DNA from: Escherichia coli
GTDB taxonomy: Bacteria > Pseudomonadota > Gammaproteobacteria > Enterobacterales > Enterobacteriaceae
NCBI RefSeq assembly: GCF_003790525.1
Contig: NZ_CP033632.1
DNA: 64,000 bases
Strand: one strand, 5' to 3'
Positions 52,501-55,500 of the stretch are shown here, one piece after another (the first letter of the stretch is position 1; each line of letters starts with the position of its first letter). The position numbers are program-made.

Positions 52501-55500
52501 AAAGAAATGGCGCAAAAAGAAATGACTACTCTAACGACAGCATACTTACAGCAATTGGTATTTTTTGCAGGCGAGGCTACTTGTCATCCTGACGCAAACT
52601 ATTTATTGGAATTTGAGAGGTTAGCGTCACCCGGTATCGTTCTGGAACTGGCCCAACAGGTGCTGGCCTTGAGACAAAAAGAGCAACATGAAAGTAATAC
52701 GTGTAGATTGAATTTTGAGCAGTGGCTGGAACAGCAACGCGGGAAAATCGATGTGGACTGTGGTTGTGTGTCCACTGAAACATTCATGCACTGGCTGCGG
52801 GTAGCTTACGAGGCTGGCAACTATCCGGATATTCCGGATAGTTCGGTGCCAGCGCCAGGAAAGGGCGTCACCGGTGAACGTATCCGCATTAAGCCGCATG
52901 TTTATCGCGAACTGGTTAACCGTCTCCACGATACAGCGATCAAGTGTGCTGGCACTCAGCAATTACGAGAAAGAATTAGCCGTGTTTTGGGCGACGTTAT
53001 TACGCCATATCATCATAAACAAGCCGAGAAAAGCGGTCTGGAAAGGTGTCATCTTGAGGCAGCATTAAACATTAAGCCGGGGCATACGCTAGGCATTATT
53101 GATGCACTGTTGGTTCATAAGATGGCCAGGGCTTTATTGTCGTTGGTGGACGCTGGTGATACAAGCGAGGGTGAAGTATGAGAGTTGCAGATCACATCAA
53201 ACACCTTGAAAGAATTATCGAAAACGGTGAACTCTTAAGAGATCAGATGAGACGCACGGCAGAAGCCAGGGAGGCGATAATCCGCAGTCAGGCTGGTAAA
53301 TTAAAGCAATTGTCAGAGATTAACACGCTATACAAGAACAGACGTAACCGGGCGGTGATGCGGCTTCAGAAAGCACGTAATGAAATTAAATTGGTGGAGG
53401 CAAAACTGAAAAAACAGATCCAGCGTTACGATCAGCAAGATGCTTTTTATGCCGCCATCAAGGCGGCTGCTAATGAAATAGGCATCTGGAAGTTGCTGGT
53501 GGAGAAAGCAAAGACGAAGTTAAATGCCAACGAAAGCTGAACTACAGGTGCCCACCAGCACATACAGAAAATGATTGTTTCCACATCAAGGAGATTTTAA
53601 TGTTTCACTGAAACATTAAGTAAGCCAGTGCATAATTCCATTTTTTACTGACCTTAAAAGCAAAATCAAAACGATGATGAGGATAATAGCCAGAATCTGG
53701 CTAATAATAGGCGCATCTAAAAATGCACTCAGGAACTGAAAAAAAGCGTTCATTCAGGTGGTTCCTTGTCAAATGTAAAGGTGCACTTGCTCACGTTGAC
53801 GTAGAAACCCAACCCCTATATAGTTGGATTCGGTGAATGAAAGTCGTTAACGTGAGCTTACGGCACATGTTTTCGGAAAAACATCAGGGAACGGCTAATT
53901 CCTTGATGCGGGTGGGGTCTGTAATGCAGACCCTATCTATTAACGTCATGATTGCATCTCAAATTTTCTCCTTATCTTCAATTAATCTACATTCATTTCA
54001 TCTGTTAGCCACCACAATATGTAGAAAATGGCCCTCTTGCAAGTGCATAACTTTGTGGATAACTCAGGAAGGAAAAAGTGGCTTTCGCGCACCTTCGGTC
54101 AGACAAGGTGTCCGGGAAAGTCAACGCAAAGAAAAAAATTGTTAAAAATAACGTTTGTTGGAATTGTATATTTTTATCCCCTTCAATGGTTAGCATTCTA
54201 TTAACATCTTTTTTTAGAGACAGAAAAACATATCGTAACAACATATATACAGTGTTAAGCGGCGAGTATTATCCTGCGGTGGGAATTCTGGGCGCTGTTA
54301 GATTCGACTTTCTCAGCAGGATTACATCGTCAACTTGCGACGTTGCCGTATGACTTTCGTGTAATAGGTGACAATGATGCGGCTAGTGAGTTACTTGTGA
54401 AGTTTTTCGGAAAAGGTTTTGTGGCCTCGGATCTTGATGAGCTACAGCAACATGAAGTGTCTAATTTGATTTTTAGCCATAGCCAATAAGCCTCCCTCCT
54501 CCATCAAGGCCACAATTTGTGACCTTAAACAATTTGTTTTCTGCTTTTTCTTATTTGAGAAAATAACGTTGTTGACAGCTAATAGGCTCGTTGTTGTTAT
54601 ACATGCCTGTATAGATTATGACCGTAAATTATTAGCGGATTTTAAGCCATATTCACCGTTGTAGAAATTACTCATGTTCCATTCATTAGGAAGTTCTTTT
54701 CTGTCCAATGTATAGTGGCGCACGATATAACGATCTTCATCTTCTTCGATGGACAGGCGGACATAGCCAATGTGAATCACCGATACGGGCGGTGTTCGTA
54801 TTGCATAGATGTCGCGGAGATATACCGGCAGCTCGACAAATGCATCAGGTGCATCTGTGATGCTCGTTTTTTCACAGTATTCATATAACGCATCGTTGAT
54901 ATCGTTAAGAGATTCATGATCGTATATTTCCAGGTAATTACCGCGATCGCGATGGTACTCGATTTTAGCCATTCAAAATCCCCTGTTATCGTTTTGCATT
55001 TCTCTAATCCGGTTCAGAACTACTTCATGCTGGACTTGGATAGCGGCTTTTTCGTTTTCAAGCCGGGCAATAGACATCTCTAATTCTTTGCTGTACCAGG
55101 CGAGCTGGGCCAGGTTCATCCGGTTGTGGTCGAGAGTTGGAGACACTTCGACGCGATCCCTTTCTTCCTGCTTTAATGAGAAGAGATTTATCTCATCCCT
55201 TGAGGAAAATTCAGCAACAATTTCTTGTTGATGATCCGGTCGCTGCGGCATCCTCGCCAGTATAAATGGCGGTTCTTTTGAAAACATGAATGTCGGTTCA
55301 GACCGTGTTTTTACCCAGCTTGCCTGCTGTCTTTCGGCAAGTTCACAGGCTTCATCATAGTTATCTGCCAAACAAAGCACGGATGGACGGTCCCACGCCC
55401 CACCATTCAGACAATAAACTACAATTTTCCCGTCAGGTTGTGTAACCCCATATGGATGGTCCCACCAGGCGTCCAGCTGAGCTTTAGAGCGTTTCTCGTT

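Follow-up and report, generated by a model that had tools for sequence, protein, structure and literature searches.

We analysed a stretch of 64,000 nucleotides (nt) of Escherichia coli DNA (assembly GCF_003790525.1, contig NZ_CP033632.1), hereafter the window, and within it a region at positions 53541-54615 that a sequence-only reading had described as AT-rich, with only short overlapping open reading frames (ORFs) and no convincing gene. Megablast of 53400-54750 assigned the window to a P1-like phage-plasmid of the P7/SJ46 type (100% identity to Punavirus MH422554, 99.8% to P7 and 99.6% to SJ46). The region is flanked on the left by a pmgV homolog (53178-53540) and on the right by leftward lxr-like genes (54616-55557). 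Its GC content is 39.4%, as compared with 51.6% for the whole window, placing it in the lowest 0.2 percentile of 1075-nt windows, and its ORFs are indeed short and overlapping, the longest having 102 amino acids (aa); no conserved protein-coding gene spans it, the conserved ORF described below covering only 138 nt.

In P1 the equivalent slot (NC_005856, 85.9-86.8 kb) contains upfM, upfN and upfO, the late promoter LPhot and hot, and in P7 it contains the upf91.3-91.7 region, between the pmgV homolog and the lxr/humD cluster. Alignment at this position, as the sequence-only reading had proposed, gave a match to P1 that ends at ~54092 by megablast and at 54161 by blastn, with 94% identity up to 54161, after which the P1 hot region is replaced by gene remnants; identity to P7 was 99.8% across the whole region. 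The window, P7, SJ46 and MH422554 all lack hot and LPhot and contain a humD 5' and a primase 3' remnant instead; IS903 is present in P7 and absent from the window. We give an even chance to the view that the region consists of two unrelated parts, a conserved module (53548-54152) and a recombination scar (54153-54615). The regulatory RNA, promoter region or decayed gene that had been offered as alternatives are all represented, in separate sub-regions: the promoter at 54014-54062, the candidate antisense RNA and leader at 53789-53973, and the remnants at 54153-54489 (Table 1).

Table 1. Coordinates in the window, strand and supporting observations for the features of the region
Feature	Coordinates	Strand	Basis or remark
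3'-end element CATTTTCTGTATGTGCTGGTGG (minus strand)	53552..53573	-	Alignments, duplex calculation
Perfect palindrome, 11-nt arms	53597..53619	-	Directly after the peptide stop codon
45-aa ORF MNAFFQFLSAFLDAPIISQILAIILIIVLILLLRSVKNGIMHWLT	53616..53753	-	Conserved in four lineages; candidate small membrane (toxin-like) peptide
Hairpin with Shine-Dalgarno sequence (SD) and AUG	53751..53778	-	Consensus fold; SD pairs with CCU, AUG with CAUU
Composite hairpin	53789..53857	-	Outer stem is the 13-bp inverted repeat; inner stem of 10 bp, 53803-53829
Sigma-70 promoter TTGACG-17-TATAGT	53796..53824	+	10/12 hexamer match; PupfN in the P1 record (predicted)
Candidate antisense RNA, ~110 nt	53831..53941	+	Plus-strand fold; stem-loops SL2 and SL3 kept in all lineages
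Leader translation signals	53884..53973	-	Direct sequence reading
nrdA-like promoter, leftward	54014..54062	-	Sequence identity to E. coli nrdA; annotation in GenBank M95666
nrdA upstream-like stretch, ~95% identity	54024..54152	-	Match to the E. coli chromosome (small ORF ypaB there)
Remnant of humD upstream region and first codons	54153..54272	+	Alignment to the humD upstream region of the window itself and to phage Cyrano (locus L005, 4075-4290)
Primase-like 3' remnant, last 66 codons and stop	54289..54489	+	tblastn, PHROG
Repeated intergenic element with terminator-like hairpin	54503..54567	+	Copies in Cyrano and PhiR41_1

The module occurs in four diverged lineages: the P7-type, the P1-type, which differs from it by ~2-4%, the D6-type, with ~77% identity, and an island resembling conjugative plasmids. 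In three of them (P1, D6-type and island) it adjoins hot, a homolog of the DNA polymerase III theta subunit, which is divergent from the peptide ORF, and its left flank is pmgV, hsdM or an H-NS-like gene. Because the left flank differs each time, the borders of the module (53548 on the left, the theta start or the scar on the right) are sharp and independent of context. Of 5426 complete E. coli genomes, 215 contain it, nearly always on a plasmid, and BLAST searches of plasmids, phages and E. coli genomes retrieved only P1-like elements of three types and the recombinant plasmid pUTME-7-2. All 54 loci from IMG/VR belonged to the three phage-plasmid types, as did the matches of a metagenome scan with the peptide, and a DNA-pattern scan of 100,044 species genomes for diverged copies gave a single mis-binned metagenome-assembled genome. 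The fourth lineage was recovered only by an exhaustive profile search with the peptide. By alignment, the most conserved DNA of the module is non-coding: identity between the window and the D6-type reaches 90-96% at 53790-53860 and 53911-53950, against ~74% in the ORF, and falls to 55-60%, with indels, at 53951-53985.

The fourth-lineage contigs (e.g. GCA_012294745.1, AASDKW010000013.1; locus 3503-4321; L085-L090) carry the theta homolog and the module outside phage-plasmids, between Vgr/DUF2345/TsiV genes of a type VI secretion system and an H-NS-like gene, and their flanks match large conjugative plasmids of Escherichia, Salmonella, Citrobacter and Klebsiella at ~83% identity; the database protein that led to them (P0005) is a 106-aa gene-caller product in which the leader ORF is fused with the peptide. 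E. coli plasmid pUTME-7-2 (NZ_CP169031; L084, 1490-2120) is a natural recombinant with a D6-type peptide half and a P7-type leader and promoter half, the switch lying within the ultra-conserved block (window ~53790-53830); it has neither hot nor lxr, and its humD lies ~1.1 kb further.

The sequence-only reading had listed a hydrophobic peptide of 44 aa; such a peptide is present, on the minus strand, but with a length of 45 aa. Its ORF has the features of small (<60 aa), hydrophobic, putatively membrane-targeted products, with a grand average of hydropathy of 1.56, a best 19-mer of 3.1, one predicted transmembrane segment and a short basic tail. The P1 peptide also has 45 aa, with two substitutions with respect to the window, as does that of the D6-type (MIVFFQFLSAFLNAPVLSQVLAIVFIVVLIWFFKSVINRGVRWLI); that of the island lineage (MFLFFHFLSTFLNAPVLSQVLAIVLIIVLICLFNALSYLIPR) has 42 aa, and a 20-nt deletion there affects only the tail. 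All four versions have an SD located 8-9 nt 5' of the ATG, which is AAGGA (53767-53763) in the window and GAGGA in the D6-type and island lineages. In the deep comparisons, the ratio of non-synonymous to synonymous substitution rates was 0.31-0.33 over codons 1-33, the hydrophobic core, and most replacements exchange one hydrophobic residue for another. The minus-strand 45-aa ORF is therefore probably a real gene, with the substitution pattern suggesting purifying selection on the hydrophobic core. Existing annotations call it a hypothetical protein, both in SJ46 (J46_0085) and in the output of the Prokaryotic Genome Annotation Pipeline (WP_000123562.1), and a word-indexed protein search retrieved only truncated copies of the same peptide. 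A DnaA-box-like site inside the ORF (TTATGCACT, 53627-53635) was judged to be due to chance, being not conserved.

Two further proteins recall the peptide. P0006, an 87-aa database protein, contains three tandem copies of FYRSVKNAIMHFL, resembling the peptide tail RSVKNGIMHWL (E = 6e-5), and is probably a translated DNA repeat related to the segment containing TTATGCACT. Phage Cyrano contains, in an unannotated 800-nt gap upstream of humD, a 31-aa hydrophobic ORF (MRPVMVNLLFKIVPPMFAIIKAIIEYVNQRP; L005, 3504-3599, minus strand) beside a hairpin terminator, which may be a small membrane peptide in the equivalent slot.

The genes annotated in this slot lie on the plus strand (upfM, upfN and upfO in P1; upf91.3, 91.4, 91.6 and 91.7 in P7), and they could be its real content: the GenBank records of both phages list them with predicted promoters, and PHROG families exist for some of these ORFs, though they were built from the same annotations. 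We consider this very improbable, and comparison of the P7-, P1- and D6-types largely refutes it, because starts and frames are not conserved among them. In the D6-type, upfM is stopped after 12 codons; P1, the D6-type and E. albertii have AAG in place of the ATG of the 102-aa ORF of the window; and the frame of upfN is shifted by a 1-nt indel between P1 and P7 and broken by an insertion in the D6-type. The predicted P1 promoters P1upfM and P2upfM were likewise rejected, as they are not conserved in the D6-type, and the 58-aa ORF is the counterpart of ypaB, a doubtful E. coli ORF within the nrdA control region. The earlier statement that no convincing gene exists here thus stands for the plus-strand upf ORFs, but it probably fails for the minus-strand ORF, whose start and SD are kept in four lineages.

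To the right of the ORF, the nrdA upstream-like stretch has a chromosomal counterpart with ~95% identity in 5425 of 5426 complete E. coli genomes. This counterpart is the upstream region of nrdA, which in the orientation of the window points leftward. The E. coli nrdA promoter responds to DnaA and to replication status. Whereas a single DnaA box had been noted here, the perfect box (TTATCCACA, 54054-54062, minus strand) adjoins a second one with an 8/9 match (TTATGCACT, 54042-54050, minus strand). Counts are uninformative, with 8 matches in the window against 4.4 expected, so that a single box alone is not significant; the pair falls within the 129 nt shared with the nrdA regulatory region. 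These tandem boxes abut a -35 hexamer TTGCAA (54042-54037), followed by a 17-nt spacer and a -10 hexamer TATTGT (54019-54014), with an estimated transcription start site (TSS) at ~54007; tandem boxes, spacer and homology together characterise an nrdA-type promoter. The window, P1, the D6-type, the island lineage and E. coli nrdA do not differ in the boxes and the -35 (TTATCCACAaagTTATGCACTTGCAA); the spacer varies in sequence at a constant 17 nt, also the length in E. coli, and the hexamer positions are kept, the elements having a -10 of TA[T/C/G]TGT where E. coli has TATCTT. Relative to the transcript that follows, the promoter is oriented as in nrdAB. Homology to E. coli stops at the -10, and the transcribed part is element-specific and unrelated to the nrdA 5' untranslated region (UTR): the chromosomal promoter serves ribonucleotide reductase, whereas the window copy would drive the peptide and its leader RNA. 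The two NrdR boxes of the nrdAB promoter are not recognisably kept; inspection by eye gave only a partial match overlapping the -10 and a motif CCCCTATATAG ~190 nt away. The promoter itself is not new, because GenBank M95666 (1993) already labels an 'nrdA-like promoter' and a 'dnaA box' on the minus strand, although our literature search found no mention of the former.

A sequence resembling NrdR box 2 of E. coli nrdA (ACCCCCTATATATAGTGTT) occurs at 53808-53826 on the plus strand (AACCCCTATATAGTTGGAT), with a palindrome 2 nt shorter; it coincides with the -10 of the plus-strand promoter described below and may be a relic of the captured nrdA region or a chance resemblance. Phage Cyrano (OV696614; L005, 3885-4045, minus strand) has its own nrdA-like promoter, with DnaA boxes, a -35 TTGCAT and an E. 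coli-type -10 TATCTT. It is followed by a predicted RNA of only ~85 nt, which closes with a strong intrinsic terminator (GCCCAG...CTGGGC and UUUUU) and folds with -27.1 kcal/mol (z = -3.6), a candidate small RNA under the same borrowed promoter. The other side of the Cyrano promoter region leads directly to a LexA box and humD.

From the nrdA-like promoter, a leftward RNA of about 420-460 nt is predicted (~54007 to ~53550), with a fold z of -3.9. In order, it would carry a strong SD with a mini-ORF, a 21-codon ORF, the complements of SL3 and SL2, the composite hairpin and the SD/AUG hairpin. The hexamer of the leader SD (AAGGAG, 53973-53968) does not vary among the four lineages, and the P7-, P1- and D6-types share the whole SD block without change. 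The mini-ORF (AUG-CAA-UCA-UGA, 53957-53946) is reduced to AUG-UAA in the D6-type and island lineages, and the 21-codon ORF (53949-53884) is open in the P7-, P1- and D6-types. However, 6 of the 21 residues differ with only ~1 synonymous change, so that we rejected it as a conserved protein and consider that the constraint is at the RNA rather than at the protein level. Searches of the leader ORF and all short ORFs against Pfam, NCBIfam and PHROG gave no informative family except for the primase fragment described below.

The composite hairpin is the most conserved DNA of the region, with 93-96% identity to the D6-type as compared with ~74% in the ORF. Its outer stem is the 13-bp imperfect inverted repeat of the sequence-only reading, which we recovered as GCTCACGTTGACG (53789-53801) pairing with CGTTAACGTGAGC (53845-53857), 12 of 13 positions being complementary. 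The inner stem, being rich in G-U pairs, can form only on the minus-strand RNA. In the island lineage, the outer stem shows one compensatory change from A-U to U-A and one change from G-C to G-U, and the inner stem one from C-G to U-G. Both arms of the inverted repeat are near-palindromic themselves (ACGTTGACGT, CGTTAACG) and could be a putative protein-binding site. Closer to the ORF, the helices of the SD/AUG hairpin are paired in 87-100% of the cells of the four-lineage consensus fold, which predicts that this conserved hairpin occludes the ribosome-binding site of the peptide. The palindrome behind the peptide stop codon, absent from the earlier list, may be a 3' stabiliser or processing hairpin; one of its pairs changes from U-A to C-G in the D6-type and island lineages, it is weaker in the latter, and the lack of a U-run behind it sets it apart from a canonical terminator.

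In each of the four lineages the 3'-end element marks the left edge of conservation, and it is complementary to the initial ~20 nt predicted for the leftward RNA. The resulting 5'-3' duplex was calculated at -16.0 kcal/mol in the window (5% of shuffles as good), -16.3 in P1 (0.2%) and -20.8 in the D6-type (0.4%), where it extends to 15 bp; it is above shuffles in three of four lineages, only marginally so in the window. Pairing of the leader SD with a 3' UCUCCUU was kept only as a weak possibility, as it is missing in the island lineage. The four-lineage consensus structure is 96% paired and has a covariation score reached by 1 of 500 shuffles, with four compensatory pairs: the A-U to U-A change of the inverted repeat, A-U to G-C in SL2, U-A to C-G in SL3 and U-A to C-G in the 3' hairpin. 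This score is supportive but not conclusive, because it derives from four sequences and the structure was obtained from the same alignment.

Inside the leader, and convergent with the nrdA-like promoter, lies a rightward sigma-70 promoter (estimated TSS ~53831), whose hexamers are invariant in the four lineages while the spacer varies at 1-3 positions. The candidate antisense RNA starting there would be fully complementary to the leader of the predicted peptide mRNA. It would consist of a single-stranded 5' tail, SL1 (53844-53876), SL2 (53882-53908) and a GC-rich SL3 core (53914-53933) followed by UAUCUAUU. The plus strand folds with -43.2 kcal/mol (z = -4.9), as compared with -29.1 kcal/mol for the minus strand; three of the four D6-type changes in SL2 lie in the loop, and the compensatory pairs of SL3 and SL2 occur in the D6-type and the island lineage, respectively.

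What the comparisons establish, namely homologies, a pattern of conservation, an ORF and two promoters that are retained, and a potential for structure with a few compensatory changes, points to a type I toxin-antitoxin-like, or antisense-controlled small-membrane-protein, locus, an interpretation of the left module that we hold with as much confidence as doubt. According to it, the leftward nrdA-homologous promoter would produce an RNA encoding a single-pass membrane peptide, which might be toxic, and in this RNA a hairpin would occlude the SD and AUG of the peptide, and the two ends would be complementary to each other. The opposed promoter would make the structured ~110-nt RNA, or a longer one that continues to hot in hot-bearing relatives; by pairing with the leader, and probably through RNase III cleavage, it would block synthesis of the peptide. 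The nrdA-like promoter would tie the locus to DnaA and replication status. The varied left flanks of the module across four lineages, and the theta homolog beside it in three, further support this interpretation.

Several results weigh against it. There are only four lineages, two of them close, so covariation statistics are weak; sliding the pairing partners by -1 also gave three double changes; and a test on the plus-strand RNA alone, with six close variants, was not significant (89 of 500 shuffles). In the island lineage the 5'-3' pairing was not significant against shuffles and SL3 has a mismatch. SL3 is, moreover, a poor intrinsic terminator, because its uninterrupted U-tract has only 2 nt. 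Neither peptide variant had a match below E = 0.01 in Pfam, NCBIfam or PHROG, and the Rfam check suggested by the sequence-only reading, made with Rfam 15 at a permissive E-value over 52500-55500, gave chance-level matches only (E >= 1.6, far below gathering scores) and no credible RNA family. Our literature search found no transcript, TSS, 3' end, translation or toxicity data for the module, and the P1 transcriptome and CRISPR interference papers contained nothing that we could find on transcripts at this region. Knock-downs of upfN and upfO by CRISPR interference, as well as cited deletions of the region, left lytic growth unaffected (PMC10695390), which is neutral for a function in maintenance or stress. 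Finally, in a simple simulation, 33 random substitutions left the 45-codon frame open ~16% of the time, per lineage; because chance retention is not negligible, the case for the peptide rests on start, SD, length and substitution pattern combined.

The weak covariation, the non-negligible chance of frame retention and the dispensability for lytic growth would equally suit a functionless spacer, in which the nrdA piece was host DNA brought by a transducing phage, the ORF and hairpins arose by chance, and conservation reflected recent ancestry. The region is also AT-rich and lies within a known variable region of P1-like elements (PMC9603915). Yet ancestry alone is insufficient for the uneven conservation within 600 nt, where blocks of 96% identity stand against others of 55% and indels occur only in the low-identity blocks; the spacer changes in both promoters leave every hexamer position intact, the consensus structure contains four compensatory pairs, and the module has been maintained in four different genomic contexts. 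A functionless spacer thus seems improbable to us.

A more serious competitor, although still an unlikely one in our view, is that the conserved block does no more than control hot and supply its 5' UTR. The rightward promoter would be the lysogenic or early promoter of hot, the structured RNA its leader or an attenuator, and the nrdA-like promoter would modulate it by convergent transcription; the 45-aa ORF would be untranslated and the P7-type an orphan left after loss of hot. In P1, the D6-type and the island lineage, the theta homolog does lie downstream of this promoter, in the same orientation, and SL3 is weak as a terminator. In addition, the P1 record annotates only a late promoter for hot, whereas its expression in both lysogenic and lytic stages is stated in the title of Chikova & Schaaper 2007, as cited in PMC4713147; lysogenic expression requires a non-late promoter. 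However, a hot leader would not explain why conservation reaches ~280 nt to the left of the plus-strand promoter, through the ORF to the sharp edge at 53548 in all contexts. Nor does it suit an ORF with a protein-like substitution pattern that retains SD and AUG, a minus-strand-specific inner stem whose changes keep wobble pairs on that strand, or a module that is intact in hot-less P7-type elements (100% identical copies in many plasmids). The ORF and 3' element left of the promoter, the minus-specific helix and the survival in the hot-less P7-type indicate that the peptide side is more than a by-product.

The plus-strand RNA may nevertheless be, instead or also, the 5' UTR of hot in hot-carrying relatives, and the antisense and hot-leader readings agree with each other if one RNA serves both as leader of hot and as antisense RNA. 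We tentatively extend the toxin-antitoxin-like interpretation to a broader proposal that we regard as possible, though rather less likely than the interpretation itself: P1-family phage-plasmids and at least one conjugative-plasmid-like element would share an unrecognised type I toxin-antitoxin-like family, with a peptide under a captured nrdA promoter and an antisense RNA doubling as the hot leader, which would link the replication and DnaA status of the host to a replisome-modulating gene as well as to a growth-arrest peptide.

Few phages have been studied as thoroughly as P1, which serves as a standard tool in the laboratory, and resistance genes are now being spread by P1-like phage-plasmids; the current annotation of this kilobase consists of three doubtful ORFs or nothing. 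If the toxin-antitoxin-like interpretation were true, P1 would have a second, RNA-based maintenance or stress module beside phd-doc, the lysogenic expression of hot would have a candidate explanation, and a mobile element would be re-using a host cell-cycle promoter, that of nrdA with its DnaA boxes, to time its own genes. It would also add a new toxin or small-protein family that was missed by annotation and by toxin-antitoxin-finding pipelines. If the module is non-functional, this is ordinary mosaic intergenic DNA.

The right part of the region is a different matter. The humD remnant has lost half of the LexA box as well as the start codon and 13 nt. It is fused to the primase remnant, which by tblastn is 88% identical to residues 109-174 of a 174-aa protein, has no match for residues 1-108, and lacks a start codon; the stop-to-stop frame (54259-54489) matches phrog_17952 (E = 6.5e-39), and the intact 174-aa protein of phage PhiR41_1 matches phrog_849, 'DNA primase' (E = 9.5e-54). 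With its start and N-terminal two thirds missing from the alignments, the primase stretch is a gene fragment rather than a gene. The IS903 of P7 is inserted in this part, with a 9-bp overlap at 54353-54361. The terminator-like hairpin of the intergenic element (54506-54526) has one C-A mismatch and a T-rich tail, and copies of the element occur in Cyrano (L005, 733-797 and 8048-8092) and PhiR41_1 (L004, 8169-8213 and 4214-4266), suggesting that it arrived together with the primase remnant. From these alignments we read 54153-54615 as a non-functional scar, formed when Cyrano/PhiR41-like fragments replaced hot in the P7-type lineage. The recombination joint was likely the shared DnaA-box segment, and the scar illustrates how such a conserved segment may act as a joint between phage-plasmid lineages.

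A perfect -35 TTGACA, followed at 17 nt by TGTTAT, occurs at 54573-54604 (plus strand) and points toward the 3' end of the convergent upf93.6; it may be an orphan promoter carried with the intergenic element, and would give RNA antisense to upf93.6 and the lxr-like gene. A motif CGTTRACG / AACGT(T) is repeated at 53792-53801, 53846-53855, 53941-53949, 54149-54156 and 54563-54571. Just to the left of the region, the window has Ea-type (EaA/Ead-like) lambdoid morons where P1 has pmgT and pmgU. The GC content of the window is higher than that of P1 (~47%), and the 64 kb may therefore include substantial non-P1 cargo.

Compared with known type I systems, the peptide shows no sequence similarity to Hok, Ldr, TisB, Ibs, ShoB, Fst or other toxins in Pfam and NCBIfam, and there is likewise none to the antitoxin RNAs in Rfam. 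In mok/hok the leader ORF overlaps the toxin ORF, whereas that of the window ends ~130 nt upstream of the peptide ORF; and, unlike in hok/sok and tisB/istR, the candidate antisense RNA misses the leader SD unless it reads through SL3. The tisB promoter is linked to stress through LexA, its counterpart here being the nrdA-like promoter with DnaA boxes. To our knowledge, neither pairing with a theta homolog nor a promoter copied from nrdA is a feature of any type I system. Loci of the hok/sok and tisB/istR types occur on enterobacterial plasmids and chromosomes, and the element of the window is a low-copy plasmid prophage that already has the phd-doc addiction module. The predicted locus has several traits in common with hok/sok and tisB/istR. 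Its small ORF of fewer than 50 codons would encode a hydrophobic peptide that crosses the membrane once and has a basic tail; the predicted mRNA, of ~400 nt, would have a long, structured leader that carries an upstream small ORF with a strong SD (as in mok and tisA), and the peptide SD and AUG would lie inside a hairpin. The predicted complementarity of the two mRNA ends recalls the tac/fbi pairing of hok, and an opposed antisense promoter inside the leader, which would give an RNA with a single-stranded 5' tail and stem-loops, again recalls hok/sok and tisB/istR.

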